Positions 32,294 through 63,041 are shown, counted from the first letter of the stretch. The stretch is DNA of 64,000 nucleotides from Patescibacteria group bacterium (GCA_041660565.1 JBAZWC010000002.1:149520-213519); one strand, 5' to 3'. Notes: generated by a model not told the origin, from the letters alone. A program made the numbers and translations.

Positions 32294-34069
32294 TCAGCGC
32301 TTCACCGGCGCCAGCGTCATCGTCCCACCCGGGACTAGTTTGGCGCCAAGGTTGACCGATCGCGGTGTTGACGGTCCCGACCCGTCCTTGTCTAGCAGTT
32401 GGAACCGCTTATGGGACGAGAACGGCCGATTGGCGCTGTCAGTACCATTCACCCACAGGTCAATGGTCTTGGCATGGGAATCGTACGATGTGTTTCCATA
32501 CGAATTCCAGTACTTGTCGAAAGTACACCCGATGAGCGGCAACGCATACTCGCCGTCTCGCGGCACCGTTATGTCAACCAGCGTCCGGGTATCTGGGAAA
32601 TACCCGCCGAAGAAATTGGTAGCGTACCACTGCCTCCAATATTCGGTTCCGCTCCGGTTGGAGGTTTTGAAGATGATCTCGTTAACATGGTAAGGTGCAC
32701 CGACCGTTTGCCCTCCCAACAGGTCAACGTAATAGTTCCAGCCGCTGTCAGTCGGCTTGCCGTAGTTGGTGCCGATAACAGTGATAGATGGGCCATTATT
32801 CAGCTTGGTGGCGATCAGTAAGTCAATCAACTTGTTGCTTAGACTGACGGACCAGAAATCCGTATGACCGCAACCCCACCTCCGGCTCGTATCGCGCGGC
32901 CCAAGCGTTGCTCCATCGGGCAGATGAGCGGCGCTCCCCACGGTAACAAACTGGTCATTGGTCCCACCAACCGTGTAGTATGACACGCTGTTCAGATGAT
33001 TGGTCGGGTAGTCCAGATCGTGGATGAAAGTGGACCAAGTCAGCATCTGCGTGATCGATAGCGCGATGGACTTGAGGCTGGACCACTGGCAGTCGGCGCT
33101 TTCCGGATTCATCACAGCGTCGTCACGCAGGGCAGTCAGAATCACATCAGCTTGTAACGACCCTGCGTTAGGTGTGGCCAACATGACCAGTTCTTGGACA
33201 TGATTCGACGCCCTATCTGACAGGTCAGTGTCTTGCTCAAGAGCGTAGCGAGACACCAAACCGCCCATAGAATGGGCAATCATGACGACCCGCTGTTCTT
33301 TTGGTTGTAGTTTGAGTAGGCGATTCAGCTCTTGTGCGTTCAGTGTGATATCGATCGCCCATGGATATTCGAAGGCATAAACCGCCTTGAATCCCCCTTG
33401 ACTGACAAGCGCCTGAGCAGTTGACTTCAGTTTGGAAGCGTCAGTCCACATACCGTGTACTAGCAACGCCACTCGACCGGTCGACGGGAAGACATGAGCG
33501 TCTCCTGTACCTGCAAGTAGCGAAATCTGGCAGACGGTTTCCTTTTGGTCAGAAAACGCAAGCAAGACGCCGTAGATGATAAACTGCGCCACGCCGCGGC
33601 TGGAGGATGACACTGGCATGGCAATCGTGGCCTTGCCGCCGGACTCGGTAACGTCTGCCCACTTCCACGTGGTACCATCAGACAAACGATACGCGCCCAC
33701 CAACACCGTGTTGGCTGGGTGAGTTGATGGCATGGACACAGTTGCCACACCATCGTTCACCGTCGTCGCCGTCTTGGCTTCGAACGCCAGTATCGGATTC
33801 GGAGCCGATGGTGGTTTGGACGGGATTGACGCGCCCTTGTACACCGTCGCGGTTACCGTGCCATTGGCATTCAACACGCCCGATGGGACAGAGACCGAGA
33901 CGCCGGTTGCACCTACATCAATCGTACCACCCGACGGAGTCATATCCTTGGTCACCGAGAACTTGTTCGACGCTGGCGGGGCGGGCGTTCCGCCTCCTCC
34001 ACCGCCACATCCAGACAACGTCGGCGCTGTGAACAACACGCCGATCAAGCAGACCCACGAAAGCTTCAT
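32294..34069 (-). CDS. Lipoprotein with alpha/beta-hydrolase (lipase-like, GxSxG) domain, encoded on a GC-rich island.
   Basis: 591 aa. Lipobox 'TLSGC' followed by a poly-Gly linker. 'IAHSMGGLV' nucleophile elbow. The DNA is markedly GC-richer than its surroundings. Confidence 0.5.
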   Translation of the reverse strand: MKLSWVCLIGVLFTAPTLSGCGGGGGGTPAPPASNKFSVTKDMTPSGGTIDVGATGVSVSVPSGVLNANGTVTATVYKGASIPSKPPSAPNPILAFEAKTATTVNDGVATVSMPSTHPANTVLVGAYRLSDGTTWKWADVTESGGKATIAMPVSSSSRGVAQFIIYGVLLAFSDQKETVCQISLLAGTGDAHVFPSTGRVALLVHGMWTDASKLKSTAQALVSQGGFKAVYAFEYPWAIDITLNAQELNRLLKLQPKEQRVVMIAHSMGGLVSRYALEQDTDLSDRASNHVQELVMLATPNAGSLQADVILTALRDDAVMNPESADCQWSSLKSIALSITQMLTWSTFIHDLDYPTNHLNSVSYYTVGGTNDQFVTVGSAAHLPDGATLGPRDTSRRWGCGHTDFWSVSLSNKLIDLLIATKLNNGPSITVIGTNYGKPTDSGWNYYVDLLGGQTVGAPYHVNEIIFKTSNRSGTEYWRQWYATNFFGGYFPDTRTLVDITVPRDGEYALPLIGCTFDKYWNSYGNTSYDSHAKTIDLWVNGTDSANRPFSSHKRFQLLDKDGSGPSTPRSVNLGAKLVPGGTMTLAPVKR

Positions 34070-34216
34070 AGTCTCTCTCCCCCGAGAAAAGTGTTGTTCA
34101 CGTACACTAGCTCAGCCATTACATCAACTTTGTTATAGCAGAAAAATGCATACCTGTCACGAAACTTTTGACTTTTTTTACATCATTCTTTACACTTAAA
34201 TAAATAAGGAGGGCAA

Positions 34217-34801
34217 ATGCATGTTCCCATAGAGAACATCGTTTCGGTTAGTTCTATGAAGGATAAATTAGAGAAGGCTGTTAATGATATGGGGCGTGAT
34301 GATATTTACGTCATCACTCACGGCGATAAGCCAGCTGCTGCGTTAGTTAGCATGGATCATCTTAAAAGTTTGATGAACAAAAGCGGCGAGAATGTTGATG
34401 TTCCGGCGCCAAAACCATCATCACCTTTGCCTCCACCGCCATCATTTAACTCAAACCCAACTCCGCCACCAGCTCCGATGGCGCCAAAACCATTACCGCC
34501 GCTACCGCCACTGCCTCCTTTGCCACCGGCACCTAAACCGATGATCGATGAGAAACCGGCCGATGCGCCGCTAGTAACTGAAAAAGAAGCCGACAAAGCG
34601 GTCTCAACCGGCACAGTTCTACCACCGCTACCTCCTTTGCCTCCTATCGGATCGACCCCAACTCCTCCACCAGCACCTAAACCATTTGCTCCTGAGCCAC
34701 CAAAAGTGACATCACCGTTTAGTAATTTGCCAAGCGCAGACATCAACGCTTCCAAACCGGCCGACGAGCCAGAGGAAGAAGATGGGGATAGCATACTATA
34801 G
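34217..34801 (+). CDS. Phd/YefM-like N-terminal domain fused to a long proline-rich acidic tail.
   Basis: 194 aa. The N-terminal 55 aa ('...DDIYVITHGDKPAAALVSMDHLKSL') resemble the Phd/YefM antitoxin fold. The rest is PLPPLPPLPP/PxxP repeats ending in an acidic tail. Confidence 0.4.
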   Translation: MHVPIENIVSVSSMKDKLEKAVNDMGRDDIYVITHGDKPAAALVSMDHLKSLMNKSGENVDVPAPKPSSPLPPPPSFNSNPTPPPAPMAPKPLPPLPPLPPLPPAPKPMIDEKPADAPLVTEKEADKAVSTGTVLPPLPPLPPIGSTPTPPPAPKPFAPEPPKVTSPFSNLPSADINASKPADEPEEEDGDSIL

Positions 34802-34907
34802 TAAAATTTTAAATTCTAAATTTTTAATATTAAAACAATGATGAAGAGCGGACCGAAACGTCCGCTTTTCTTGTGTTTTTGTGCTACATTAATAGAAAAG
34901 GAGAGTT

Positions 34908-35294
34908 ATGAACGAACAAGGATTTGGATCACCGGAAAAAGAAGTAAAAAGCCCTGAAGAGGCTAGAGCGGAGGCAGCTGATCGAGATTTGCGAAAGCTG
35001 GCCGAGTTAAGAGAATCCGGAGAGATCGAACCAGAAGATTTTCCGATCGACACTCTATTACAGCTTAATGAATACGACCAGCCAGTGGCTCGCAAAGATG
35101 CTGGGAATCAGGCAATCGTGATTAACCCTGGCCAATTCGAAGAGTTAGGATACATTGACTTTGTTGGGGCGGGCGGAGAGTTAATTACACTCGACTTTGA
35201 AGATCAAGTTACAACGCACCCGCTGATAATTTTCCCATCCGAACTCGGCGACTTACCAGAAAATGTCATTCCGGGCCCGGCTCAGAATTTATAA
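34908..35294 (+). CDS. Acidic hypothetical protein.
   Basis: 128-aa ORF, strongly acidic (E/D-rich), no recognisable motif. Confidence 0.3.
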   Translation: MNEQGFGSPEKEVKSPEEARAEAADRDLRKLAELRESGEIEPEDFPIDTLLQLNEYDQPVARKDAGNQAIVINPGQFEELGYIDFVGAGGELITLDFEDQVTTHPLIIFPSELGDLPENVIPGPAQNL

Positions 35295-35820
35295 TAATAA
35301 AGTTTACTTTTCCAGCATAATTATCTCGCACAGTGTATATCCCAAGGCTATGCCCGGCTTGATAGCCATTTATCGTGTTTGGGAGAGCTTGAATAGAATA
35401 TGAGTTACACAGACTGTTGAGTCTGATTAATTCTTGAAAATCCGTATCGTTTGAGACGACTACTACTCGGTTAGATACCAGCAGTACTCGTACTATTTCA
35501 GGATTAATTTGATTAAGTAACATGTCAATCTTATTCTTGACGGTGATATTCAGCTGTTCGACATTGCCTTTTCCTCGATTGCATAATAGACACAGGGTTT
35601 GATAGTTATTCAGATCTCCCGATCCCCCCTTGGAGAAAGGCTTAATGTGGTCAGCCTCCAGTTTGACCGCGTCGATCTCCAACTCAGGGTATAAAGAAGG
35701 AGACTTGCCACAAGACCGACAAGTAAAATTATCCCGTTGCAAAATTTGTAATCTTTTTTTGGCCGAAACAGGTGGCCGGCGCTTATTCTCCATTTGTTTA
35801 AAATCCCTTAACGATATCAA
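35266..35820 (-). CDS. HNH endonuclease-domain protein.
   Basis: 184 aa. 'CRSCGKS...LEADHIKPFSKGGSGDLNNYQTLCLLCNRGKGN' is the HNH motif with its Cys4 zinc site. Confidence 0.65.
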   Translation of the reverse strand: MISLRDFKQMENKRRPPVSAKKRLQILQRDNFTCRSCGKSPSLYPELEIDAVKLEADHIKPFSKGGSGDLNNYQTLCLLCNRGKGNVEQLNITVKNKIDMLLNQINPEIVRVLLVSNRVVVVSNDTDFQELIRLNSLCNSYSIQALPNTINGYQAGHSLGIYTVRDNYAGKVNFIIINSEPGPE

Positions 35821-36280
35821 CTTCTTTTTCTAGCACCGTGTCGCCCTCACCAAAGACAAACTTGGCTTTTAGCTTTTTGCCCTCTATTACCTGCGGCAAC
35901 CAAAAAATATCGTCTGGCCACATTTCTTTATATGGTAGCTTATTTACCTCAAACCATTTTGGAGACATCTCTTCAGATTCGGTTGGCTCCCCTGTCCACT
36001 TTTCGCACAAATAAGCATAGACAATTTGATTCCACTCCGGTTTATGCGGAAAAGTAAAATCTATTTCCGCAACTTTGTCTAAATCTTTTACATCAACATC
36101 AATTTCTTCTTTGGCTTCTCTAATAGCAGCTTGTTCCACCGTCTCACCTTCGTCAATTTTGCCACCAACCCCGTTCCAACGATTAACCCCGAACCCGCGC
36201 TTTTTCATCGCCAGACAAATTTGGGTTATCTTTCCCCCATCACGTTTGATTAGAAATACCAACGTAGCATTTTTCATCAT
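35798..36280 (-). CDS. NUDIX hydrolase, paralog of 29522..29974.
   Basis: 160 aa. Nudix box 'GGKIDEGETVEQAAIREAKEEIDV'. Confidence 0.7.
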   Translation of the reverse strand: MMKNATLVFLIKRDGGKITQICLAMKKRGFGVNRWNGVGGKIDEGETVEQAAIREAKEEIDVDVKDLDKVAEIDFTFPHKPEWNQIVYAYLCEKWTGEPTESEEMSPKWFEVNKLPYKEMWPDDIFWLPQVIEGKKLKAKFVFGEGDTVLEKEVDIVKGF

Positions 36281-36630
36281 CAGCCTTTCGTGATATTATT
36301 CTCCGCGTTTTTGTGGTTGTATTTAGCTAAAATCTCGGTTTTAACCTGATTAAATGCACTTTCGATATCCACATCTAGCTGATTAGCCAACCGGCACGTC
36401 GCAAAAAACAGATCACCGATACCGTCTACAAATATCTCTTTATTTTCTTGCACAAATTTGATGCGCTCCGGCTCAGACTTGTATCGCAAATGCTGTGACA
36501 TTTCAATCAACTCTTCATGCAAGTGATCAAATTTATCGACGTTGGGCACGTCTTTCCAGCCGTTTCGTTCGGCAAAAAACCGCAGCAACTCCTGCGCCTC
36601 TTTCAAGGTGGAAATTCGCTTATCTTTCAT
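36280..36630 (-). CDS. MazG-like nucleotide pyrophosphohydrolase, paralog of 28675..29061.
   Basis: 116 aa. 'HLHEELIEMSQHL' and 'VDGIGDLFFATCRLA' paired acidic helices. Its start overlaps the NUDIX stop, so the two are translationally coupled. Confidence 0.6.
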   Translation of the reverse strand: MKDKRISTLKEAQELLRFFAERNGWKDVPNVDKFDHLHEELIEMSQHLRYKSEPERIKFVQENKEIFVDGIGDLFFATCRLANQLDVDIESAFNQVKTEILAKYNHKNAENNITKG

Positions 36631-36644
36631 TTATACTCCAACAT

Positions 36645-37193
36645 TTATTCAATAACATAATCCCAACCCGGTTGCCAAGCTTTTCTTTTGCGCCAATCTT
36701 CCGCAAACGCCTGCTCCCATGATTTACCCTTGAGTAATACATCAAGCGCTAATTGCGGCGCTTTGTGAGCAACTATAGCCACAGTTTTGCCATCATAGTC
36801 ATCTTTTAGGAAACTGACGAAATTGGATATACGATTTTTAACATCCTCGTAACTCTCGCCTTCTGGAAATGGCTCGGAAATGCACTTTTCTTGCATGGGC
36901 TCGACAATTTCTGATGATTGAGCGTTAAATTTTCCATAATTGCACTCTCTTAACCGCTCGTCTATTACGATCGGCACGATCCCCTTGAAAGTCAAGTTTG
37001 CAGAGTCAATGGCTCGTTTTAAATCGGAGCAGAACACTGCATCAAACTTCTTACCCACGATTTGCTCTTTGAGATCAATTGACTGCTTGACGCCTAAGCC
37101 TGATAAGCCAACATCAAACCAACCAGACGACACCCCTTTTTCATTGTCTGTTGTAGTGCCATGAACGAAATAAGTAATGTTTATCGACATCAC
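36645..37193 (-). CDS. Histidine phosphatase superfamily (phosphoglycerate-mutase-like) protein, atypical.
   Basis: 182 aa. 'YFVHGTTTDNE' sits at the position of the RHG motif, but has V in place of R, so activity is uncertain. Confidence 0.4.
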   Translation of the reverse strand: MMSINITYFVHGTTTDNEKGVSSGWFDVGLSGLGVKQSIDLKEQIVGKKFDAVFCSDLKRAIDSANLTFKGIVPIVIDERLRECNYGKFNAQSSEIVEPMQEKCISEPFPEGESYEDVKNRISNFVSFLKDDYDGKTVAIVAHKAPQLALDVLLKGKSWEQAFAEDWRKRKAWQPGWDYVIE

Positions 37194-37972
37194 GATTTCT
37201 TTTCTAATTGCTTAACCAAATCCTTAACTCGTTCGTGGGCGTAAAGCCGGCCGGTTTCACGAATCCGAGGCATTTGCGAAAAGTCATACCAACTGAACTC
37301 TTGTACCATCGGTGTAAAGACAAAATCTGCCTTGTCTAGCTCGTAAGCGTTGATACGGCTTTCCATAATATCAAACGCGCGCGAGGCAATTTGCACTCGG
37401 CTGGGGCGACGCAGTTGTTTATTAAAATCCGCTAGTTTATATACCGATGATACGATCACAAAACCAACTCCTTGATCTTTTAATGGGCTAACAGGCAAGT
37501 TTAGGCTGATTCCCCCATCTATATAGTGATGCTCACCCACTTTTTGTATTGGGAATAACCCCGGATACGCGGCCGAAGCGATGACGCACTTAACCGGATC
37601 TCCGGTAGTAAACAATTTAACCTCACCGCTAATAATATCGGTAGCAACACACGAAAAATGAATTGGCAGCTGGTCAAATCGATCAACTTTTACAATCTTG
37701 CGAATAATTTCTTCCAGTTGTTTGAATATTCTTTCCGGACGGCGCAGGCGGATGACGTTCTTAAACGTAAAAATGCCCAGCTTATCCAGTTGGACAAAAA
37801 ATTCATCTATACCATCACTACCTTTCGCAGCGTATAAAACGCCCGCGATTGCACCTACCGATGTACCGCAAACACTGTTTATTTTGATGTGATTTTTCTC
37901 TAGACTTTCAATCACACCGGCGTGTGCCGCGCCCAGAACTCCCCCACTACTTAACGCTAATCCAATTTTCAT
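37190..37972 (-). CDS. Patatin-like phospholipase.
   Basis: 260 aa. 'LSSGGVLGAAHAG' oxyanion Gly-rich loop, 'CGTSVGAIAG' GxSxG, and 'IDGG' catalytic Asp motif. Confidence 0.7.
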   Translation of the reverse strand: MKIGLALSSGGVLGAAHAGVIESLEKNHIKINSVCGTSVGAIAGVLYAAKGSDGIDEFFVQLDKLGIFTFKNVIRLRRPERIFKQLEEIIRKIVKVDRFDQLPIHFSCVATDIISGEVKLFTTGDPVKCVIASAAYPGLFPIQKVGEHHYIDGGISLNLPVSPLKDQGVGFVIVSSVYKLADFNKQLRRPSRVQIASRAFDIMESRINAYELDKADFVFTPMVQEFSWYDFSQMPRIRETGRLYAHERVKDLVKQLEKKS

Positions 37973-38017
37973 AAGTTAATAATATCATAATATGAAATTA
38001 TTGAAGCGGTGGTGAAA

Positions 38018-38593
38018 TTATGATGGCTTTTGAATAATCAACTCTAATACCTTATGCTTATGCTCAACAGGTACGTAGTCAGTCCGTTCGAATACAACTT
38101 GATCAATGAGGCTAAATTTTGCAGTTAATCCCGCCACATCTTCTAGTTTATACGAATAATCGACTTTACCAGTTTTGTCAGATATTTCGATATTAAAATG
38201 AACAAAGAAATAGCCGTTTGGTTTTAGCGCTCTAACAATCTCCGAGATCGCTTTTTCTTTATCCACGTAGTGGATTACATTAATCATATAAAACGCATCT
38301 ACCGAATTGTCAGCAAGTTTCAATTTTTCTACATCTTGAACTTCAAACGTTAACTCCGGGTAATTTTTACGCGACAGGGCAACCTCATCGGTTTTGTTGT
38401 CGACCCCGATGGAACGAAATCCCATTTTGACAAAACAATCTACGTCGCGCCCATTTCCACATCCAATATCGACTAATAATCCGCCAAAGCCAACCTCTTT
38501 GAGAAATTTCGCAAAAGTCTCGGCATACACGGTTGGGTGGTTTTCCCAATGACGTCCATTAGAATATTTTTGGTAAAGTTTTTCTGATTTCAT
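38018..38593 (-). CDS. Class I SAM-dependent methyltransferase.
   Basis: 191 aa. 'LLVDIGCGNGRD' motif I; 'LKPNGYFFV' motif. Confidence 0.6.
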   Translation of the reverse strand: MKSEKLYQKYSNGRHWENHPTVYAETFAKFLKEVGFGGLLVDIGCGNGRDVDCFVKMGFRSIGVDNKTDEVALSRKNYPELTFEVQDVEKLKLADNSVDAFYMINVIHYVDKEKAISEIVRALKPNGYFFVHFNIEISDKTGKVDYSYKLEDVAGLTAKFSLIDQVVFERTDYVPVEHKHKVLELIIQKPS

Positions 38594-38615
38594 AGCGTAA
38601 TGTTAGCACATTTTG

Positions 38616-39191
38616 CTAGATAACTTGTAGGACGTCTGTTAGTTGTTTGATCCGGATGATGTTTTTGTGATCTGAAACGCCATGGTTCCACGGCCTGTCA
38701 AACAGCAACACCCTCACCCCGGAATTGGCGCATTTCTCTGCCCATTCCGGCGAATCGTCAATTATCAGATCAACTTTTTCACGTAAACAAACATCGTTTT
38801 TCTCTCCTCGTGCGTTACCGTCATTAGAAAAATGATGGGTCAAAATAATCTTAGAGAATCGTTGTGGAAAATGGCTGTCTAACCAGCTTGTAGTCTCAGC
38901 GGTTAACTGTGTTGGACGGGAAGTGATAACAATTAATTCGTGATCTTTTGATAATTTTTCCACCACGTCGACCGCTTTGTTCTGAGGTTGCAATGACTTA
39001 AGACTGCCCGATTGGTAAAACTTAAATACCTTATCGACTATCTCTGCGTGAGGGCGCTTGAACAACGGCTGTAAATCGTATTCAAGAACGTCTGATAATA
39101 CAAAACTCGTGCCGTCGTTTTCGTTGCAGTAGCGCAAAAACTCAGACACAAAGTCGGTTAGCACATCATCAAAATCAAAAGCAATTTTCAT
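38616..39191 (-). CDS. HAD-superfamily 5'(3')-deoxyribonucleotidase-like phosphatase.
   Basis: 191 aa. 'MKIAFDFDDVL' is the HAD motif I (DxD) at the N-terminus; length and architecture are NT5C-like. Confidence 0.5.
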   Translation of the reverse strand: MKIAFDFDDVLTDFVSEFLRYCNENDGTSFVLSDVLEYDLQPLFKRPHAEIVDKVFKFYQSGSLKSLQPQNKAVDVVEKLSKDHELIVITSRPTQLTAETTSWLDSHFPQRFSKIILTHHFSNDGNARGEKNDVCLREKVDLIIDDSPEWAEKCANSGVRVLLFDRPWNHGVSDHKNIIRIKQLTDVLQVI

Positions 39192-39209
39192 AAAGCCATA
39201 TTAGCACAT

Positions 39210-39785
39210 TTAGGAAACGCCGGCCTCATCTTCCGAGTTAATCTGATGAAAATACTTCATTACGGATTCTCCAATAATGTCTAGGTCCGTCAATAATTCT
39301 TCGCGATCATCTTTTGGATCAATAATTCCTTTTGCCTGCGATGGAGATAAAATATAGTAAATCGGCATATCCATAGATGTATTGGCGCTATAAACTTCAA
39401 TAAGCCACGGGAATTTCTTGTGTACAGTTCGCCTATAAACTACTTCGATGATATCCTTTAATAATTGTTTATCGTCGCAAGCAAACCAAATTACTGGTAA
39501 TTCCTCGCCGTGACCCTCACAAGATTCTACGGTTATAAGACCGTTGTTTGTCAACACCTGACAAATTCTTTTCATTGGTTCGTCTGTGATTGGTAAGTTC
39601 AGTTCAATATCTCTGTACCGCTGAACTGATTTCTCGGTTTCCGCTCTGTATTGCGCAATTCCCTCCGGGGACCATCTTTCATCACATATTCGACTAACAA
39701 TTAAGTCAGCACTAATTCTTGGCTTTACGCCTGATTGACCAACCTCGGATTCGCCTGAGATATATTCATTCATTTGTGACTCCAA
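39210..39785 (-). CDS. Hypothetical protein, flanked by 33-bp direct repeats.
   Basis: 191-aa ORF, no motif recognised. Identical 33-bp sequences at 39183-39215 and 39793-39825 bracket it. Confidence 0.3.
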   Translation of the reverse strand: MESQMNEYISGESEVGQSGVKPRISADLIVSRICDERWSPEGIAQYRAETEKSVQRYRDIELNLPITDEPMKRICQVLTNNGLITVESCEGHGEELPVIWFACDDKQLLKDIIEVVYRRTVHKKFPWLIEVYSANTSMDMPIYYILSPSQAKGIIDPKDDREELLTDLDIIGESVMKYFHQINSEDEAGVS

Positions 39786-39828
39786 ATGATTTAATTTTCA
39801 TAAAGCCATATTAGCACATTTAGGATTG

Positions 39829-39866
39829 TTAGGGGATTTGGGGGGATTGGGGGCTTTTGGGAAGTG
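39829..39866. repeat. G-rich half-element of the same family.
   Basis: 'aggggatttggggggattgggggcttttgggaagtg' between the 33-bp direct repeat and tRNA-Ser(CGA). Confidence 0.55.
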
Positions 39867-40492: not shown

Positions 40493-40518
40493 TCTTCCTG
40501 GCTTGATTTGTTTCGACT

Positions 40519-54912: not shown

Positions 54913-56261
54913 GATGCTACCTTTAATCTGGCAATAGTGTCGAGTATTTTGCTGTAACTTTTTGAGACTGTGGGATTGTGGCTACCGATTGAAGCGGCAG
55001 CGATCTGGCCATTGCCGATGTAAAAACCGACATGCCCGTATCCTCCGCCTACTTTCTTACCGTGCGAGTCGTATCTGATGGGGCTTTTGCCAGATCGGTA
55101 AAGTAAATCACCCTGGGCAAATTGTGAGTAAAAATCGGACCCGGACTTTGAGAAATCAACCTTAATTACTTCATAGCACGCTGTTTGTTGTTTGACGTAT
55201 AAATACTGATCGTAAGCGACACCAGTGAGGTTATCGTCAGCGTCGGTCTCGTGCATCACGCGAATGGCAAATGAGTTACAAGCGGTTTTATCACTAACAT
55301 CGCAAGTTGCGTATTTTTTAATTCCTTCCGGATCCGAGGCGTAATATCGAGCCAACTTAGCGATTTTTTGTCCGATTTCACTGGCTGGCACGCCACCGTA
55401 TCCCCAAATGTTTAGTTGATTAATATCATCCATCATTGCGATCAACGATTTTTTATCCACATCTGTGTCGTTGCTGGAGTAGGTAGCTAGTCGAGTGGAT
55501 AGATCGGTTAGCTTGTCTAGCGCAGCTTGATCTGGTTTTGGCCGTCCGGTTGGGGGATTGTTGGTGGCGGCACTTTGGGCGCTTTTGATTACATCGAGAA
55601 TGATTTGTTTACTGGCCGCGTCTAACTGACGGCGCGAGATTATATCCCCGGCATTCATTAAGGTGATGGTTTTTTCAGACGAGGCACTGGCTTGTTTAGG
55701 ACTACTGCCACCGTTTATTGAGACGGCGATAGCAATTGCGATCGCAATAATTATTAGTATAACCAGAAAAATAATCGCTGATACCGGATTTGCAAATAGC
55801 GCCATCGCCCCTCGCGCCACTCCTTGCCCGACTAACTTAACTCCCTGAGCTACGACTTTTGTTGCTTCAGTAGCGGCTTTTCCCGCTACTTTACCCACTT
55901 GCCCGGCGGCTTTACCGGTTTGGCTGGCTACTCTGGTGGTCTGCTCGGCCGCTTTACTGGCTTGGCTGGCAACTTTGGCTGATGCTTCAGTTGTTTTACC
56001 AACTTTGCCTACCGAGGAAGCCTCTGCCGTACTTTCCGGGCTATGCAAAAATCGATTAAAAATTGACTGACGCGGATTTACATCGTCATTAATGCCTTTA
56101 CTGGGAGTGCCGGTTGGGTTGCGGTTAATTGGTTTAAGGCCGGCTTGCTGGGCTTGGTCGTACCGGGTTTTCTGATCATCAGCATCGACAGCGCCAACCT
56201 CGCCCGTTGGTATTTCGGGAGTAACTTCATCGTCTACTATGTCAAAGTTTGGGTCTGGCAT
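54897..56261 (-). CDS. Bitopic membrane protein with C-terminal CHAP/NlpC-P60-like peptidoglycan hydrolase domain (PrgK/CwlT-like).
   Basis: 454 aa. Hydrophilic N-terminal region, central TM (VSAIIFLVILIIIAIAIAIAV). The C-terminal domain has conserved Cys ('ATCDVSDKTACNS') and 'GHVGFYIGNGQ' His motifs typical of CHAP/NlpC-P60. Confidence 0.45.
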   Translation of the reverse strand: MPDPNFDIVDDEVTPEIPTGEVGAVDADDQKTRYDQAQQAGLKPINRNPTGTPSKGINDDVNPRQSIFNRFLHSPESTAEASSVGKVGKTTEASAKVASQASKAAEQTTRVASQTGKAAGQVGKVAGKAATEATKVVAQGVKLVGQGVARGAMALFANPVSAIIFLVILIIIAIAIAIAVSINGGSSPKQASASSEKTITLMNAGDIISRRQLDAASKQIILDVIKSAQSAATNNPPTGRPKPDQAALDKLTDLSTRLATYSSNDTDVDKKSLIAMMDDINQLNIWGYGGVPASEIGQKIAKLARYYASDPEGIKKYATCDVSDKTACNSFAIRVMHETDADDNLTGVAYDQYLYVKQQTACYEVIKVDFSKSGSDFYSQFAQGDLLYRSGKSPIRYDSHGKKVGGGYGHVGFYIGNGQIAAASIGSHNPTVSKSYSKILDTIARLKVASCKKS

Positions 56262-56264
56262 ATT

Positions 56265-57518
56265 TTACTCGTAGGTTGGGGTGGTTAAGCTAATCGACAT
56301 TAATTGATTGCCAACAGTAAACATCACCCGATCGTCGTTTGGAATAGTAATCAAATTGTCGGGAGAAAAATCAATTCCGCTTGGCTTAGTGTATTGATAA
56401 TCTGTAACCGTGCCGTCAAGCGTCACATTGACCAGTTTTTGTCCGGTTGCGCTTGAAGTAACGGCAATGATCGATTTGCTACTATTCACCCAGGCAATTT
56501 TGGATACGCCGGATAGTTCTACGTTCAATGGTATAACACCACTGCCGTCAGATTTGGCCACCCACAGCAAGTTAGATGTTCCCCCGCTGGAAGTAGTGCC
56601 CGGAGCAACGTAAGCGACGTACTGGCCGTTTGGACTCCATTTTGCCCCTTCAACATCGCCCTCGGTGGTTAGACGGGTCATTTTTTGGGCAAAAATATCG
56701 TAAACATACAAATAGTTGGTTTTGGTCTGGGTGCTGTTTGATTTAAGGAAGATCTGCTGCCCGTCCGGTGACCAGGTAATAGTGGGGTGATCGATGTTGT
56801 CGATGGTCAAATTGTAAACGCGACGCAAGTTAGCGTTTTGGACATCGGACAAGATTAAAGTTTGCTCGCCATTGGTGCCGTAATAGGTGTATGCTGCTTG
56901 AATGGAGCTTGGCGACCACGCAAAATCATCAATATTGGTGCCCCATAAAGTGAGAGTTTGATTTAGTAAATCGTGGCGGGCAAAATCATATAAATACACC
57001 CCGTCTGCCTTTTTCATTAGCGCTACCGCTCCGTCCGGGCGCATTTGCACTTTGGAAATATCGGTGAGGCTGTCTGGAGTAAGCGCTACTACGTTAACGG
57101 CGGTCTGGCCGGTGACGGTTTGAGTGCGGTATAGGGTGTGCCCCAAATTTCCGACAAAATAGACGTCGCTTTTATCTAGCAACTTAGGCGAATTGGTGAC
57201 CGACGCGCTAAGCACTACCGGTGTGGGGATGTTTTTCATTAGCACGGGTAGCACCAGCTTTTGAGCGCGGGTTAAGGTGATTTTTTTCTGATAGGTTACG
57301 TATCCGTCGGCGGTTAGTTTGACCAAATGATCGCCAACCGTGGTAGTGATGGAATGGCTGTGAATAACGGCGTTATCAAAAGTGATCTCGGCGTTGTCCG
57401 GGCTAGATTGAATGATCAGCTTGGGTGAACTTAAGACAAAAGTGTACAACAAAAGCGCTCCGGCCAAAACGGCCAGCGTGGCGATAATTCCGATTAATAA
57501 GGCTTTATGTGCTTTCAT
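56265..57518 (-). CDS. Membrane-anchored TolB-like (PD40) beta-propeller protein.
   Basis: 417 aa. N-terminal TM. Repeated 'WSPDGQQIFL', 'WSPNGQYVAYVAP' and 'WSPSSIQAAY' PD40-type blades. Confidence 0.5.
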   Translation of the reverse strand: MKAHKALLIGIIATLAVLAGALLLYTFVLSSPKLIIQSSPDNAEITFDNAVIHSHSITTTVGDHLVKLTADGYVTYQKKITLTRAQKLVLPVLMKNIPTPVVLSASVTNSPKLLDKSDVYFVGNLGHTLYRTQTVTGQTAVNVVALTPDSLTDISKVQMRPDGAVALMKKADGVYLYDFARHDLLNQTLTLWGTNIDDFAWSPSSIQAAYTYYGTNGEQTLILSDVQNANLRRVYNLTIDNIDHPTITWSPDGQQIFLKSNSTQTKTNYLYVYDIFAQKMTRLTTEGDVEGAKWSPNGQYVAYVAPGTTSSGGTSNLLWVAKSDGSGVIPLNVELSGVSKIAWVNSSKSIIAVTSSATGQKLVNVTLDGTVTDYQYTKPSGIDFSPDNLITIPNDDRVMFTVGNQLMSISLTTPTYE

Positions 57519-57525
57519 TCATCTC

Positions 57526-58269
57526 CTACGACCCCGACAATGATGGTAAGGGAGACGCAAAATTATCTCGGGTGCAACCATTCCCTACATATATTGTAGC
57601 ACCAGAAACGTTTAAGTCACCTAGGTCGCCATTGGTTGAATTAATATAGCTTGAGTCGCTGGTGGCGATGTCAAAGTGAAATGGATTGTTACCAAATTCA
57701 CTAAATGCTCCGGTATCTACTATCCGAAACTCAATTCCTTTGCCGTTTAATTTTGCGGCAACACCGGCTTTTTTCTCTAAATCCGGAATATATGCCTTGG
57801 TACCGTATTTGTAAGTATTAGTGCTACCCTTTAATGTCTCCAGGTTGGCGGCCAAGCCTGCGTAATTGCCCTCCTTGGCACTTGAATATTTGCCATTAAG
57901 ATAATCTTCAAGTTTGTGTACTACTACGCCGCGAGCATCATTTACCCCTCCTTCAATGCCGCCTTTGCCAGGAACATAGGTGGTTGCCTCTTTTAGCGTG
58001 ACGGCGTTGCAATCCGGGCCAACGTTGACTGTTCCGCCGGCGACAGTTGAATTGCCGGTTGGTTTATTCCACGTGCCGCTGGGGTTGTAAAAAACAGCAA
58101 AGATCACGCCAAACATGATCAACGGGATAGCAATGGCGGCCACGCCTAAAATAATCATCAGAATTTTGCGTCCGGATTTCTTTGGTGCAGGTTGTTGATT
58201 TTCAGTCTCGTCAGGCATATAAACATCCAAACAATTTTTAATTTTTAATTTTAAATGAAAGGTAGCCAA
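57526..58269 (-). CDS. Membrane-anchored protein with possible 3D/DPBB (lytic) domain.
   Basis: 247 aa. TM (ILMIILGVAAIAIPLIMFGVIFAV). C-terminal 'FRIVDTGAFSEFGNNPFHFDIATSD' resembles the Asp-rich 3D domain of MltA/YuiC-type hydrolases. Weak call. Confidence 0.3.
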   Translation of the reverse strand: MATFHLKLKIKNCLDVYMPDETENQQPAPKKSGRKILMIILGVAAIAIPLIMFGVIFAVFYNPSGTWNKPTGNSTVAGGTVNVGPDCNAVTLKEATTYVPGKGGIEGGVNDARGVVVHKLEDYLNGKYSSAKEGNYAGLAANLETLKGSTNTYKYGTKAYIPDLEKKAGVAAKLNGKGIEFRIVDTGAFSEFGNNPFHFDIATSDSSYINSTNGDLGDLNVSGATIYVGNGCTRDNFASPLPSLSGS

Positions 58270-58355
58270 TTTTTAAATGACTAAATAAGGAACCATTTTT
58301 AAAATTTAATCATTCGGTACTTATTCATTTAAAATTTAGCCTTTAAAATTTAAAA

Positions 58356-60149
58356 TTATTCTTGTACTTTCTGTTGATCCATAATTTCTTGTGGGTTGGT
58401 GGTGATAATTTGGTGCTCGTTATAACTGGCGATAATCTTAATGGCCACGTGTTCTTGACCGGCAAAGAACAGCCCTTCACCAATGTCTGATTCTAATAGC
58501 AGCATTTTCTCACCGTCGGTTAAGCCAAATATTTGACTGATTTTTTCGATTGATGAGGTGGATTGTTTGAGCAAAATCTGTAATGACGAGTTGGAAACCA
58601 CCGCCTTACCATATTGCCCTTGCAAAAAATCCTCAACGTCTTGGCTGATAATGGTTAATCCTAAGAAATATTTACGCGATCGCTTGGCTAATCCGTACAA
58701 AAATCGCGCCGAATCTTCGTATTGCATCATGGTCCACGCTTCATCCACCACCATAATACGCTTCTTAAAGTTAAGTCTAATTTGAGTCCAAATGTAGTTC
58801 AAAATCACATACATTGCTACCGGTCGTAACTGCTCTTCCAAATCGCGAATGGAAAACACCACAAAGCCCTCACCCAAAGCAAAGTTGGTTGGTTGATTAA
58901 ACAGGCCGGCATAGGTGCCCTCAGTATATTTGGAGAGGCGCTTGGTTAGCGAATCTGTGCCCGAAAGGTTGGCCAGCACCGAGACTAAATCGGACATTAC
59001 CGGCGGCTCGTTAGTTTGAGTTTTTGGATCAACGGTAATATCTTTGATGGCGTAGGTTTCATACAGCGCTTTGTCCAAAATCGAATCTTCCTCGGGAGTT
59101 AAGCCGCCAGTCATCAGTGAAATTAGACCGTGTAAATCGGTGATAGTCGAACGTAAAACATCGTCACCGGTTTGATCGTTGTCGGCGTGCGGTAAATCAA
59201 ACGGGTTAATGCGTTTTTCGGAATTCAGGCTAACCTCAAGATAACTGCCTCCTACTGCATCACACAGTGCTTTGTACTCGTTTTCCGGATCAACAATAAT
59301 GATGTCGGTGCCTAGCATTAGGCTGCGCAGCACCTCTAACTTGACCACGTATGATTTTCCGGCGCCCGCCTTGGCAAAGACCACCGAGTTGGCGTTTTCC
59401 AACTTAAACCGATCAAATAAAATTAACGAATTATTGTGACGGTTAACGCCATACAAAATGCCTTCGTTGCTGGTCAGTGTGGCGGTGGTAAAGGGGAAGG
59501 TGGTGGAAAGCGAACCGGTGTCTAGGTTGCGGGTGATGTTTAGTTGATCGTTGTGCAAGGGCAGTGAGGCGTTAAAACCCTGCTCCATCTGATAAAGCGC
59601 CTGTTTGGTGTAAATTAACATTCCGCCAAGCACCGATTCCAGCTGTCTGGTGATGGTTTTCAAATCTTCGCGTGATTTAGCGTAAATAGTGAAATATAAC
59701 GCGTAGTGAAATAGGCGAGATTCGCCTTTTTGTAACACATCGCGCAACTCTTCGATATCACCCACCGCTGTTTCTAATTCGGGATCTCGCACCATCCCTT
59801 TTTCCTGTTTGATGGTGACGGACGATGAAAGTTGCCCCAACTCTTTTTTAAGATCGGTCATTACATCTTTGGTATCAAGCGGATAAATGAACATCGAAAT
59901 GTCCATTGGGATATCGTAGTCAATGATGTTAGCCAGCCAGTTAGTCTCCAAATAACGCGGGTAAGTGTAGGTGAACAGGGTTTTGACAAACTGTTCGCCC
60001 AGTTGAATATCGTTTGGCGACACTACAAAAACCGACGGCGCAATAATATCTAGCACGCTCGCCATGCCCTCGGTAAAGACTTGCTGGGCATTGTTTTGAG
60101 CCGCAACTGCTTGCTTGTCTAGTTTAATTGGGTTTGGCGTGTCGGTCAT
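58356..60149 (-). CDS. VirB4/TraC/ConE-family type IV secretion ATPase, C-terminal (ATPase) part.
   Basis: 597 aa. Walker A 'AKAGAGKSY', 'IIVDPENEY', Walker B 'MVVDEAWT'. Its ATG overlaps the stop of the upstream ORF as ATGA. Confidence 0.75.
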   Translation of the reverse strand: MTDTPNPIKLDKQAVAAQNNAQQVFTEGMASVLDIIAPSVFVVSPNDIQLGEQFVKTLFTYTYPRYLETNWLANIIDYDIPMDISMFIYPLDTKDVMTDLKKELGQLSSSVTIKQEKGMVRDPELETAVGDIEELRDVLQKGESRLFHYALYFTIYAKSREDLKTITRQLESVLGGMLIYTKQALYQMEQGFNASLPLHNDQLNITRNLDTGSLSTTFPFTTATLTSNEGILYGVNRHNNSLILFDRFKLENANSVVFAKAGAGKSYVVKLEVLRSLMLGTDIIIVDPENEYKALCDAVGGSYLEVSLNSEKRINPFDLPHADNDQTGDDVLRSTITDLHGLISLMTGGLTPEEDSILDKALYETYAIKDITVDPKTQTNEPPVMSDLVSVLANLSGTDSLTKRLSKYTEGTYAGLFNQPTNFALGEGFVVFSIRDLEEQLRPVAMYVILNYIWTQIRLNFKKRIMVVDEAWTMMQYEDSARFLYGLAKRSRKYFLGLTIISQDVEDFLQGQYGKAVVSNSSLQILLKQSTSSIEKISQIFGLTDGEKMLLLESDIGEGLFFAGQEHVAIKIIASYNEHQIITTNPQEIMDQQKVQE

Positions 60150-60835
60150 GTTGTCTTGTTTTCAGTTGATATTATATTTTCGGTTAACTCGGTTGGTTGC
60201 TCAACACGCTCAGATGCGGCAATGTCAAAGTTATAAGTGTTATAAAGCGATCGAATGATACCATCGGAGTCTAAAACAGTAGTCTTCAATCCAAAAGATG
60301 CCAAGCCGCTGGCAACCACGTTGGCTCGCTGCATCAACTCTTCGCGATGAATGTTAAATTGTGATTCGCTAATTTTTAAGTAAGATGGCGCTTTGCTCTT
60401 AAACAATCCGGCAAAAAGTGATTTGCTGTCCTGCACCACCGGCGAATACGAAATCACCACAAAAAATTTTTTATCCATAATGTTAGCCACCGTAATTAGC
60501 TCGCGCACATAGGCGACGTAATCGGTAGTCTGAGTTTTAATCAGCTCATTTTTCTGCCCCACGGTAGTAGATTCAAGCTGTTTTAAGTACGGCTCCAAAT
60601 CTAACGAACGTGATTGCATTACAATCTGAATTGAGTAATTAAGAGAGTTCAAAAAGTTTTGATAGGCCATTATGAGGGCGTTTTGTTCTTGCTCAGATTT
60701 CAACATAAAGTTGGTTGAGCCAACAGAAATTATGGCACGATAAGATCCATCGTGCATAATTACTACCCCGTTTTCAACTCCAACCAGAGGAAGGTGAGAC
60801 TGGGTGCTGGCCGGTTTGGCAGTTTTTTCTGCCAT
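60146..60835 (-). CDS. VirB4-family ATPase, N-terminal domain as a separate ORF (split VirB4).
   Basis: 229 aa. 'LPLVGVENGVVIMHDGSYRAIISVGSTNFMLKSEQEQNALIMAYQNFLNSL' matches the N-terminal domain of Gram-positive-type VirB4 (Tn916 Orf16/ConE-like). The stop overlaps the next ORF's start, and combined length is 826 aa. Confidence 0.6.
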   Translation of the reverse strand: MAEKTAKPASTQSHLPLVGVENGVVIMHDGSYRAIISVGSTNFMLKSEQEQNALIMAYQNFLNSLNYSIQIVMQSRSLDLEPYLKQLESTTVGQKNELIKTQTTDYVAYVRELITVANIMDKKFFVVISYSPVVQDSKSLFAGLFKSKAPSYLKISESQFNIHREELMQRANVVASGLASFGLKTTVLDSDGIIRSLYNTYNFDIAASERVEQPTELTENIISTENKTT

Positions 60836-60991
60836 TACAAAACCCCTCCTGATTTAAGGATAACACAATTATTTAATCTTTGTAATTTTCCTTTTAATCG
60901 TGTCGAGGGCGGTCAAAATAAAAAAGCACTAAGCACTAAATTCTAAATCCGAAATAAATTCAAATTGTAAATTGTAAATTTCAAATTCGGT

Positions 60992-62440
60992 CTATATCGG
61001 CACGTATTCCGTGACCCAGGTGATAATCAGCGCTACCATTTGTATAATCGCTTTTTGAATATACTTAGCCATTAATTTTAGCGCATTACCGATAGTGTTA
61101 TTGAGAGCCGTATTAACTGCGTCAGAATTTATTGTATTCCCCTGTGATGTAAATAAACCTTTTTTTGTATCAATTTGGCATCCCCCGGTAGCTTGTGTCA
61201 TAGCAATTGTGCCGAAATCTAAATCCGCAGTTGTAGTGGTGCTTTCTTGGGCTGATGTAATGGTTAAGCTTTTCTTTCCTTCGAAATTATCACTCCCAAC
61301 GGCTTTGCAGGCGTAAAGAAACACGGTTTGTCCTTGCGGAACATAATTTAATTGTATCGCTTCAGTACCGGACCCTGGCCAGGAAATGGTAGCGTTATTA
61401 TCCTCGCCTTCTAATTGAGGTTGGGATGGGACATCGACATGAAAGGTGACTCGTCCATCAGCGATGTCAGGGATACTGGCTTTGATGTTAAACTTTGCCA
61501 AATGACCACTAAGAAACTGATATCCTGGCGAATTATCACCGTTTATTCCATAGTCGCCCATCCAAACGAGTGGGGTATCGCCAGATAGCGCAGTCCATAT
61601 CCCACCAAATGAAGGAAGTGTTGCGTAAATATTCCAGTAATTCGGGCCAGCGGCTGCAACACATCCCGAACTTGAACAAAACGCATAAGCGTCACGTCTA
61701 ACTGGGCTCCCTCCTGACACTGCATTTCCTAATGCGGTGTAACTTGTGATGTGTACAACGCCAATGAATGCATAAGCGGTGTCTGCTTTTGAATATCGGT
61801 AAAGTGTTTTATAGGTGCGTGGGTCAAGAAAATATGGGTCAAGATCTTGATAACCACTATCTGACGCGTGGATTAGTATCAAGTGGGATGCGTCAATAAC
61901 ATCAGTCGAATGGTTGTTGATGTAGTTTGATAAATCAGATTGATATGGGTCGCTTAGATTGCTGGTTTTCTGGGTTGCCTGACCATTAGAGTCAAGAAAA
62001 TACAAACCATACTTAATTGAAGTTGGCGTTGTAGTCGACAGTATTATTCCGATATTAGTATTGGATAATTGGTAAATCGGCCCCGAGAAAGTACCCCCAC
62101 TATTATTGTCAGCAGGGATACTCGATGTTTTACCAGTATTTTGAAATTGTGCGGTCGATTCGGTAACATTACCATTAACCGTTGAAAGATATCTGTCTGT
62201 GATTGTGTTTTGCCCGTTGCTGTAATAAAAGTAATGGCTGAAAACATTAGTGCCAGATGGGGTTGGAATATTTGGCGTGTCGGCGCGGGCGGAGAGCTGA
62301 TAAATTGTGTATCCAACCACAGCCAAGATCACCAAAACCACGCCCACATTGACGTAGTCAATCGAGCGCTTTGTTAGCCATTTTCTTAAAACTTTTTGGC
62401 GCATTATCTTTAGCTTAAGACAAAGCGTCATTAGTTGCAA
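60992..62440 (-). CDS. Secreted/bitopic hypothetical protein, first gene of the T4SS-like operon.
   Basis: 482-aa ORF. N-terminal TM (VGVVLVILAVVGYTIY), S/T/N/G/Y-rich body, C-terminal hydrophobic helix (IIQMVALIITWV). The probable start is an internal Met (MRQKV...). Confidence 0.35.
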   Translation of the reverse strand: MQLMTLCLKLKIMRQKVLRKWLTKRSIDYVNVGVVLVILAVVGYTIYQLSARADTPNIPTPSGTNVFSHYFYYSNGQNTITDRYLSTVNGNVTESTAQFQNTGKTSSIPADNNSGGTFSGPIYQLSNTNIGIILSTTTPTSIKYGLYFLDSNGQATQKTSNLSDPYQSDLSNYINNHSTDVIDASHLILIHASDSGYQDLDPYFLDPRTYKTLYRYSKADTAYAFIGVVHITSYTALGNAVSGGSPVRRDAYAFCSSSGCVAAAGPNYWNIYATLPSFGGIWTALSGDTPLVWMGDYGINGDNSPGYQFLSGHLAKFNIKASIPDIADGRVTFHVDVPSQPQLEGEDNNATISWPGSGTEAIQLNYVPQGQTVFLYACKAVGSDNFEGKKSLTITSAQESTTTTADLDFGTIAMTQATGGCQIDTKKGLFTSQGNTINSDAVNTALNNTIGNALKLMAKYIQKAIIQMVALIITWVTEYVPI

Positions 62441-62501
62441 TAAAATGCGAAGACCGCCGTATGGAAACGTCCACGCGGCGGTCTATTAGGCGGATGATAC
62501 T

Positions 62502-63041
62502 TCATGATTGTTCGTATCGCCGATCGACGACCTTGTTTGTCGCTGGATCAACGATTATATACAGCACCTCAAGCACGGTGTGCGGGTCAGCGGTGCGATA
62601 TACGTCATATGGTACCCACACAAGCCCGCCGACCACCTTGGAGTCCTGGGTTCTCGAGCGCCCACTGAACTTATCCAGTCCGAACTTGGATGTGCCGCCG
62701 GTCAGGAAATCGGATGGGCTGAGCAATGCAAGCGACTTAGCGAACTCGGACGACATGTACTGAGTCGCGGCGTCGAAGGCAGCGGTGTCGGCGTCGCCCC
62801 ACCTGACGTTGTTCATCATCGTGATGGCGGCTTGAATTGCTGGGAAGTACTGGCTGTTCGATCCGACCGGCTGGTCGAAAACGACTTGATTGGTCGTTGA
62901 TGGTGCAGTTGTCGTGCGTGGCATGAACATTACTGCTAGCACAAGCAACACCGCACCGATGCTGATCCCGCCGGCGGCTTGAAAGACCACGGGCGGAATG
63001 CGGGAGCTGCTGACGCTCCCATGAGGATGTGCGACGGACAT
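62502..63041 (-). CDS. Hypothetical membrane-anchored protein on a GC-rich island.
   Basis: 179-aa ORF. TM (ISIGAVLLVLAVMFM). GC-rich DNA bounded by AT-rich flanks. Confidence 0.3.
   Translation of the reverse strand: MSVAHPHGSVSSSRIPPVVFQAAGGISIGAVLLVLAVMFMPRTTTAPSTTNQVVFDQPVGSNSQYFPAIQAAITMMNNVRWGDADTAAFDAATQYMSSEFAKSLALLSPSDFLTGGTSKFGLDKFSGRSRTQDSKVVGGLVWVPYDVYRTADPHTVLEVLYIIVDPATNKVVDRRYEQS

Follow-up and report, generated by a model that had tools for sequence, protein, structure and literature searches.

What accounts for a handful of conspicuously GC-rich segments around the replication origin of a bacterium of the candidate phyla radiation (CPR), and where could they have come from? 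We addressed this question in a 64,000-nucleotide stretch, hereafter the window, of a Patescibacteria group bacterium (GCA_041660565.1, JBAZWC010000002.1:149520-213519). The source is a metagenome-assembled genome (MAG); the contig is 374,447 bp long, and the genes of the window carry locus tags WC773_03505 to WC773_03665. An initial annotation had marked five GC-rich islands here and proposed that they were acquired from a high-GC donor, possibly an actinobacterial host. These five are designated I1-I5, the third of which holds two open reading frames (ORFs; I3a and I3b), and an extra cassette is designated I6. We found that the islands are foreign in composition, contiguous with their flanks and built as self-contained units. 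In our view they are probably horizontal acquisitions resembling phage morons, drawn from an unsampled and moderately GC-rich gene pool.

The window was segmented into log-odds maximal-scoring segments, with a background GC of 0.43 and an island GC of 0.57. All five islands of the initial annotation were recovered almost to the base and are genuine compositional features, although the genome it described as AT-rich is only moderately so (window GC 44.4%; standard deviation between 300-nt windows 0.051). The segments obtained were:

32244-34084: I1, GC 0.559, score 61.7
42790-43775: I3, GC 0.568, score 37.8
48008-48686: I4, GC 0.596, score 36.9
62447-63127: I5, GC 0.573, score 27.9
40607-40926: I2, GC 0.553, score 9.6, weak on raw GC
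30280-30569: I6, GC 0.583, missed by the initial annotation

Besides these segments we relied on synonymous GC at third codon positions (GC3s) of whole genes. Raw GC windows were dropped as a statistic because many stretches exceed the mean by 0.09 or more (167 in the 1.56 Mb of comparator loci), and a sliding 60-codon GC3 proved too noisy. Codon statistics were set against 54 genes of the window, in which GC3s was 0.429 ± 0.044 with a maximum of 0.525. The island ORFs reached 0.638 (I1), 0.600 (I2), 0.646 (I3a), 0.636 (I3b), 0.689 (I4) and 0.667 (I5). For these six the z values were 3.9-5.9 (I1 4.8, I2 3.9, I4 5.9, I5 5.4) and the excess +0.17 to +0.26, which places all of them above the highest native gene. 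The codon-model log-likelihood was likewise low (z = -2.5 to -3.9), and every island fitted the pooled codon model of the remaining islands better than the native one. Individual codon fractions differed strongly between islands and background (AAG 0.83 vs 0.25, TTC 0.74 vs 0.23, TTA 0.03 vs 0.28). ORFs with a GC3 at least 0.12 above the median made up 6 of 61 in the window as opposed to 17 of the 1206 ORFs in a comparator set of 83 low-GC dnaA loci, an approximately sevenfold enrichment (Fisher p = 5e-4). The proteins deviate in the same manner, being poor in Lys and rich in Gly, Ala, Arg and Pro (summed fraction of these four residues, GARP, 0.27-0.32 vs 0.216 in the background; K/(K+R) 0.22-0.39 vs 0.62, with I1 as the exception). 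The codon and amino-acid usage of the islands is thus foreign to the genome and similar from island to island, which points to a common history in a gene pool of about 55-60% GC. I6 stands apart, as its GC3s is 0.576 and the codon model fails to separate it from the background.

These values bear on the possibility that the islands are native, vertically inherited genes, their GC raised by amino-acid composition, by selection or by GC-biased gene conversion in fast-evolving genes for surface proteins. Other GC-high stretches of the window are indeed compositional, fast-evolving CPR surface proteins often have no detectable homologues, and the best relatives are so distant (DnaA identity at most 48%) that there is no sister genome to show the islands' absence. 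The initial annotation had itself named amino-acid composition as a potential cause of the high GC. However, the excess is found at synonymous sites and goes beyond the maximum of the native genes, so amino-acid composition alone is no explanation for the islands. Reported effects of biased gene conversion are much smaller than the GC3s excess seen here, I2 and I4 are not surface proteins, and the island boundaries are abrupt. We consider a native origin decidedly unlikely.

Two candidates of the compositional kind were examined and rejected as islands. The high-GC stretch 34403-34775 is a Pro-rich region with a GC3 of only 0.40. It lies within an ORF of 194 aa (34217-34801) whose N-terminus resembles a Phd/YefM antitoxin domain, at a score under the Pfam cut-off, and whose long Pro-rich tail consists of a PPLPP repeat; given the low GC3, the high GC of this ORF is due to amino-acid composition. 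Gene callers picked an antisense Gly-rich ORF of 145 aa (34357-34794) there instead. GC-high patches within a 1933-aa ORF (49111-54912; no Pfam match), which adjoins genes resembling those of a type IV secretion system (T4SS), were likewise rejected. This ORF, putatively for a surface protein, contains Ala/Ser/Thr/Gly-rich patches and patches of raised GC3 (0.62-0.64, e.g. 54014-54442 and 49795-50327). Few genes outside the islands have a GC3 as high as that of the ORF as a whole (0.527), and it may be a mosaic.

We then compared the anatomy of the islands. Their extents, including transcription signals, coding sequences (CDS) and predicted transmembrane segments (TM), are as follows:

32244-34160, minus strand: I1 cassette; CDS 32294-34069, predicted 591-aa lipoprotein alpha/beta-hydrolase
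40503-40926, plus strand: I2 cassette, the weakest of the five; CDS 40567-40914, 115 aa, no TM
42798-43808, minus strand: I3 cargo; I3b CDS 43268-43744, I3a CDS 42848-43255
47954-48688, plus strand: I4 cassette, between recF and dciA; CDS 48067-48645, 192 aa (201 aa from GTG 48040), no TM
62447-63168, minus strand: I5 cassette, beside the T4SS-like cluster; CDS 62502-63041, 179 aa, TM at about residues 15-46
30241-30571, plus strand: I6, a possible cassette; CDS 30293-30499, 68 aa

Each island is a compact unit consisting of a Shine-Dalgarno (SD)-like sequence, one or two ORFs and a stable 3' hairpin. Each of the six cassettes also has a promoter-like site in the AT-rich DNA immediately upstream. 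Three of these sites were flagged by a promoter scan, namely those of I5 (63168-63140, TTGACA-17-TATAGT, 11 of 12 positions), I2 (40503-40531) and I6 (30241-30269). The sites of I1 (GTGACA-17-TATAAC, 34160-34132) and I4 (TTGACA-17-TATAAC, 47954-47982) were read by eye. SD-like sequences lie ahead of the preferred start codons (GGGGGAGAG for I1, GGAG for I2, GGAGG for I3a and, after a GC-rich leader, GGAGAA for I5) but are weaker for I3b and I4. The four strongest terminator-like sites between 30 and 49 kb coincide with island 3' ends: those of I4 (48656-48688, 15 bp, z = -4.2), I3 (42819-42790, 13 pairs, z = -2.8), I6 (30551-30571; two terminator hairpins ending at 30571, z = -4.4) and I2 (40901-40925, z = -4.1). 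I5 ends in a terminator hairpin at about 62451-62484 (z = -4.0) and I1 in a terminator-like 13-bp hairpin at about 32248-32276 (-28.4 kcal/mol, z = -5.2), so that all six 3' hairpins are more stable than shuffled controls. The transitions which the initial annotation had called abrupt are sharp and coincide with the promoter and terminator ends. The insertions are exactly intergenic and leave the neighbouring genes intact. No paralogy was found among the islands. Known RNA families do not appear to be the cause of the high GC, as Rfam at an E-value threshold gave nothing over I2, I3, I4 or I5; for I1 and I6 the scan was at gathering threshold only. The orphan island proteins had no match in Pfam, NCBIfam, PHROG or PADLOC.

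By sequence, the products would comprise one surface lipase or esterase, three small N-terminally anchored extracytoplasmic proteins and two or three small cytoplasmic proteins. The initial annotation had all of them membrane-anchored or secreted. This holds for four of six, through the lipobox of I1 and the N-terminal TM of I3a, I3b and I5, but I2 and I4 have no TM, and the enrichment for envelope proteins is accordingly partial.

Abrupt compositional change in a MAG is a classic warning sign, and the islands might be an assembly or binning artefact in which reads of a GC-richer organism were joined chimerically. We used a second assembly, the Logan unitig-based contigs of SRR18595301, made with a different assembler and no binning, to check contiguity. 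Logan contigs were 100% identical to window positions 30826-39212, 40461-44679, 44652-58262 and 58331-64000. Each island was contained with both its flanks within one such contig, and the sequence was identical through all twelve junctions. An identical independent assembly makes chimeric joins very unlikely. Moreover, five or six independent chimeras would have had to fall precisely between genes, each bringing its own SD-like sequence, 3' hairpin and upstream promoter-like site and preserving the neighbours, which is implausible; one insert is in addition flanked by a duplication of local sequence (below). An artefact seems to us barely credible. Together with the foreign codon usage and the precise intergenic position, contiguity supports the proposal that the segments are foreign acquisitions rather than artefacts.

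The insert with the local duplication is I3, which lies between rpmH and dnaA. Its cargo is enclosed by two direct repeats (no strand assigned):

42759-42797: left 39-nt direct repeat, with the probable rpmH promoter and the T-run of the I3 terminator
43809-43847: right 39-nt direct repeat, a duplicated promoter copy placed to drive I3b-I3a

The copies are identical at 37 of 39 positions and lie 1050 nt apart. A 35-mer of the repeat occurs at only these two sites in the window, with 0 expected. Hexamers resembling TTGCTT-N17-TATTTT suggest that the repeat contains a promoter. As the initial annotation had supposed, I3 interrupts a conserved junction: the rpmH-dnaA gap is 1246 nt here and 130-340 nt in most CPR loci. 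Across 70 loci the spacer is mostly 130-700 nt, and it exceeds 900 nt in only four. When one 1050-nt unit is taken out, a spacer of 196 nt remains, which is typical for CPR loci. I3 at least was probably inserted by a recombination that duplicated 39 bp of its target. Because the duplicated 39 bp holds the probable rpmH promoter, the copy would now drive both I3 genes. The restoration of an ancestral spacer by removal of the unit also argues against the islands being native genes.

Both I3 products are predicted to carry an N-terminal TM. I3a has 135 aa, and I3b has 158 aa from GTG 43744 with a Cys-rich CDC...CEEC stretch. Annotations of I3b disagree (74 aa at NCBI, 183 aa at JGI, 223 aa in Logan), as the ORF is open to 43939. 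The duplicated promoter copy lies inside this long ORF, which places the I3b start near GTG 43744 and not at ATG 43939. Neither protein had viral relatives in IMG/VR, I3a had no plasmid match, and I3b had no relative in a billion-scale protein search. A PHROG holin match to I3a (E = 0.0014) was marginal and was dismissed as noise from the TM region.

I4 and I5 lie on either side of a T4SS-like cluster (49111-62440) that adjoins dnaA-dnaN-recF. The backbone into which I3 and I4 are set is:

41022-48992, no single strand: origin-proximal backbone, with yidC, yidD, rnpA and rpmH on the minus strand and dnaA, dnaN, recF and dciA on the plus strand

The same gene order is found in the CPR loci L006, L073, L002 and L110, and oriC is probably at 45360-45593 (GC about 0.31, with a turn in GC skew). 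I4 separates recF from dciA, the DUF721 gene, by 853 nt; in L073 a DciA-like gene abuts recF with a gap of 0 nt, in agreement with the synteny break noted initially. I4 found only itself among 5.8e9 proteins and had no phage match. I5 had no relative in an exhaustive phmmer search of 1.84e9 representatives and none in IMG/VR. Single-sequence AlphaFold2 models gave a predicted local distance difference test (pLDDT) score of 39 for I4 and of 36 for I5. CPR T4SS clusters are known to adjoin dnaA, dnaN, rnpA and rpmH (bioRxiv 10.1101/2025.01.22.634366), which matches the cluster at 49-62 kb.

I2 and I6 are found beside rearranged tRNA-Ser loci, and the tRNA-Ser fragments reported next to I2 are real:

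39907-40494, minus strand: rearranged tRNA-Ser(cga) locus, adjoining I2; tRNA at 39907-39996

A 62-nt direct repeat, made up of the 5' end of tRNA-Ser(cga) and its upstream region, occurs at 39984-40045 and 40433-40494. It brackets a GIY-YIG nuclease gene (39982-40251; Pfam 3e-14), the last 20 or so codons of which run through the repeat into tRNA-Ser(cga), and a diverged tRNA-like fragment lies at 40315-40357. I6 is convergent with tRNA-Ser(tga) and the duplications of its 3' end. Neither I2 nor I6 is bracketed by the repeats beside which it lies. I2 had no match in Pfam, NCBIfam, PHROG or PADLOC, and no relatives among viral (IMG/VR) or plasmid sets or in 160 dnaA loci.

A separate feature of these tRNA genes was also observed. 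tRNA-Ser(gct) and tRNA-Ser(tga) each have downstream of them, in inverted orientation, a near-identical segment of some 91 nt and, after it, a duplicated tRNA 3' end (CCTCTCCGCCA; 29238-29353 and 30624-30774), with a third, partial copy of the segment at 30624-30672. The arrangement resembles a mini-element targeting tRNA-Ser or a very small scar of the attL/attR type.

The repeats and tRNA neighbours raise the question whether the islands, instead of having been captured directly from cells, belonged to integrative mobile elements or phages, of which they would be the cargo or the decayed remains. They would then be either cis-mobilizable elements (CIMEs; attL-cargo-attR units mobilized in trans) or transferred morons. 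The 39-nt repeat flanks I3 in the manner of attL/attR, I2 and I6 lie next to tRNA-Ser genes with duplicated ends and, for I2, next to the GIY-YIG gene, the cassette anatomy is that by which morons are defined (PMC2920897), and the gene pools of mobile elements typically consist of such orphans. Nevertheless, the searches returned no IMG/VR relatives for I2, I3a, I3b or I5, no phage match for I4, no plasmid match for I2 or I3a and no PHROG match apart from the marginal holin. No integrase was seen among the scanned ORFs of the window, and I1, I4 and I5 have neither flanking repeats nor an end motif in common. Taken as a whole, we regard this alternative as unlikely.

I1 is the only island whose product can be assigned to a known family. 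The initial annotation described a lipobox lipoprotein with a GHSMGG lipase motif. The lipobox (LSGC, followed by a GGGGGG linker) and a lipase-type nucleophile elbow were both found, but the motif reads AHSMGG. I1 scored above the Pfam gathering thresholds of DUF7379 (42 bits, cut-off 33), PGAP1 (32.2, cut-off 24.3) and LCAT (31.9, cut-off 21), and shares with these hydrolases the GxSxG elbow (AHSMG). It differs from them in the added lipobox and Gly linker and in an N-terminal region of about 170 aa and a C-terminal region of about 200 aa without known domains. The nearest PDB match, a weak one, is the putative lipase 7x2p, in which AHSRGG aligns with AHSMGG of I1. A match to LmuA was rejected as hydrolase-core noise. 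From these features, I1 is predicted to be a surface lipoprotein with lipase or esterase activity, of the PGAP1/LCAT/DUF7379 type. With such an enzyme, an organism unable to make its own lipids could plausibly attack or scavenge them.

The donor was sought with the same proteins. In billion-scale searches I3b, I4 and I5 were without relatives and I1 had two distant hydrolases (26-27% identical); I2 and I3a were searched against plasmids, IMG/VR and the 160 dnaA loci. IMG/VR, phage and plasmid sets and the dnaA loci gave nothing beyond weak matches from Streptomyces, cyanobacteria and Agrobacterium to the hydrolase core of I1. All copies of the island proteins trace to one MAG. Cluster sizes at 90% identity were discarded as evidence of orphan status, since singletons also occur among the native genes, dciA being one.

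The initial annotation suggested that, if the organism is an episymbiont of high-GC Actinobacteria as many Saccharibacteria are, the host could be the donor and host-derived surface proteins could mediate the interaction; it proposed looking for best matches in Actinobacteria. The islands are GC-richer than the genome, their codon usage is foreign, four of the six products are envelope proteins, and the weak matches to the I1 core do include Streptomyces plasmids. Those matches (tblastn) are 26-30% identical over 22-30% of I1 and cover the catalytic core only, the best being 26% identical over 30% of the protein, and they are no better than the cyanobacterial or Agrobacterium ones. For I3b, I4 and I5 there was no homologue of any taxon among 5.8e9 or 1.84e9 proteins, and I2 and I4 are not envelope proteins. 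From the relationship between GC3 and genomic GC, values of 0.60-0.69 correspond to a source of about 55-60% GC, whereas direct transfer from actinobacteria (65-72% GC) would typically give a GC3 above 0.8; the islands are thus too low for a direct high-GC source. The markers of the organism itself are closest to a Berkelbacteria locus in multi-marker matches (yidC 47%, yidD 58%, dnaA 47%, dnaN 42%, recF 36%, and also rnpA), and Saccharibacteria loci score lower on yidC and recF. By these marker genes, Berkelbacteria-like CPR seem to be nearer to the organism than Saccharibacteria are. We find a capture from an actinobacterial host very improbable.

We return to moron-like acquisition from an unsampled gene pool, which we favour. 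One- or two-gene cassettes would have been acquired horizontally, entering intergenic spacers of the origin-proximal backbone and sites beside tRNA-Ser genes. Their earlier history would lie in a pool of about 55-60% GC that is absent from current databases, be it an unsampled host, a neighbour or the cargo of mobile elements. Several observations weigh against this interpretation. No donor homologue was found in the searches above, which leaves composition and synteny as the grounds for assuming transfer. No close relative exists in genome or metagenome contig collections (best DnaA 47-48% identical), which makes a long residence in the genome possible; in an exact-protein look-up, identical RpmH was present only in the same sample. 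The Logan assembly comes from that sample, SRR18595301, presumably from the reads behind the MAG, and its independence may extend no further than the method. In composition, I2 and I6 are weak. The coding status of the orphans rests on GC1>GC2<GC3 periodicity, SD-like sequences and transcription signals, without conservation, and this periodicity is missing in I1 and in the 68-aa CDS of I6. For I1, I3 and I4 the scan flagged no promoter, and the sites given were picked out by eye. No motif shared by the cassette ends was found, and flanking direct repeats were present at I3 but not at I1, I4 or I5. Finally, no integrase, transposase or relaxase was detected among the window ORFs that were Pfam-scanned or pre-annotated, a set that leaves about 15 smaller ORFs uncovered; near the islands there are only the GIY-YIG gene and an HNH nuclease gene.

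Horizontally acquired islets in CPR genomes are known already. For Patescibacteria, Gios et al. (2025, mSystems, PMC12455944) described genomic islands and horizontal transfer; they attribute up to 13% of genome length to transfer, often could not recover the donors, and name a lysophospholipase gene in a gene list within a passage on transfer rates. The islands described there resemble ours in being compositionally atypical DNA in streamlined CPR genomes. Ours differ in being below 2 kb with one or two genes and not multi-gene, in having no detected donor or homologue, in clustering around oriC and the T4SS genes, and in being all GC-richer than the genome with a common codon usage.

Morons, in the concept of Hendrix and Juhala, are extra ORFs between adjacent conserved genes, with their own promoter and terminator and a differing GC, and their products are often membrane proteins or fitness factors (PMC2920897). 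In anatomy the cassettes agree with this definition, with the promoters of I1, I3 and I4 by eye only. Their flanks, however, are rpmH, dnaA, recF, dciA and T4SS genes and not a phage or prophage, and there are no PHROG structural matches or viral relatives. CIMEs are similar in that the I3 cargo lies between 39-nt direct repeats without a recombinase gene and that I2 and I6 lie beside tRNA-Ser with duplicated ends. They differ in that the I3 unit is only 1050 bp, its repeat corresponds to a promoter region instead of a tRNA 3' end, neither a parent element nor a matching integrase was identified, and repeats are absent from the other islands. Integron cassettes share the size of 0.4-1 kb, the single orphan ORFs and a composition unlike that of the host genome, but are usually promoterless, attC-bearing and arrayed beside intI. 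We rejected this class, as the islands have own promoters and no attC-like common ends, are dispersed over 33 kb rather than arrayed, and no intI was found nearby. What is notable here is that the GC-rich orphan units carry their own transcription signals and are inserted into the most conserved origin-proximal junctions, with one 39-bp target duplication re-using a probable rpmH promoter.

Comparable islets were looked for elsewhere. The only relative of I1 with the same architecture is P0003, which is 26% identical over 349 aa and has a lipobox and a Gly run. It comes from a different sample (locus L166, a Logan contig of SRR23908894), where it lies in a two-gene islet at 450-3100 that also includes a secreted 229-aa ORF. 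This islet has a GC of 0.54-0.59 and a GC3s of 0.61-0.71, between flanks with a GC of 0.33 and 0.43-0.46. Other CPR-like dnaA loci hold GC-rich ORFs without a Pfam match that have a lipobox or an N-terminal TM:

L003, 7566-8597: one ORF, beside yidD
L092, 4454-4933 and 18922-19452: two ORFs
L089, 1231-2055: one ORF

No flanking repeats were found at the comparable islets of other loci. The P0003 islet and these ORFs are anecdotal hints of a recurring class and support the impression of an enrichment for envelope proteins.

Some further features of the window are of note. G-rich repeats resembling TTAGGGG/TTGGGG occur 12 times where 0.68 are expected (39829-39861, 46728-46788, 47822-47944, 63411-63434 and 63762-63776). 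They form inverted pairs, i.e. hairpins, after dnaN and after recF, and may be an intergenic element akin to repetitive extragenic palindromic (REP) sequences. Three consecutive ORFs of 191 aa (38018-38593, 38616-39191 and 39210-39785, in the region 37964-39825) are each preceded by a related 33-nt sequence, spaced by about 600-620 nt, the outer two copies being 100% identical; the precomputed Pfam matches of two of these ORFs differ (NT5C and methyltransferase). The T4SS-like cluster includes genes for a VirB4/TraG-type ATPase (58356-60149), a TraC-like protein (60146-60835) and a PEGA/beta-propeller protein (56265-57518). Upstream, the region 20648-24992 encodes a PilB-type ATPase (20648-22252) and a protein resembling T4SS pilins (23850-24992). 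A large cluster for cell-surface glycans, of normal GC, extends over 297-19479, with several GT2/GT4 glycosyltransferases, two Wzy/O-antigen-ligase-like proteins, methyltransferases and a PMT_2-like protein.

As for the wider biology, it is conceivable, though we would call it a long shot, that CPR/Patescibacteria genomes recurrently carry GC-rich, self-contained orphan cassettes, mostly for lipoproteins or small N-terminally anchored proteins, in the origin-proximal backbone by the T4SS cluster. Such cassettes would act as strain-specific host-interaction or effector genes and derive from a shared, unsampled GC-rich pool, and their insertion could duplicate tens of bp. Composition alone identifies no donor, and the account of capture from an actinobacterial host is without support at this locus. 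The islands also indicate that in these organisms foreign DNA can enter even rpmH|dnaA and recF|dciA, the most conserved gene junctions of bacteria. With their very small genomes, CPR bacteria rely on other cells, and the genes that mediate this dependence are largely unknown. With a predicted surface lipase and small anchored proteins encoded beside the origin and a T4SS cluster, the cassettes offer concrete candidates for such interaction genes.

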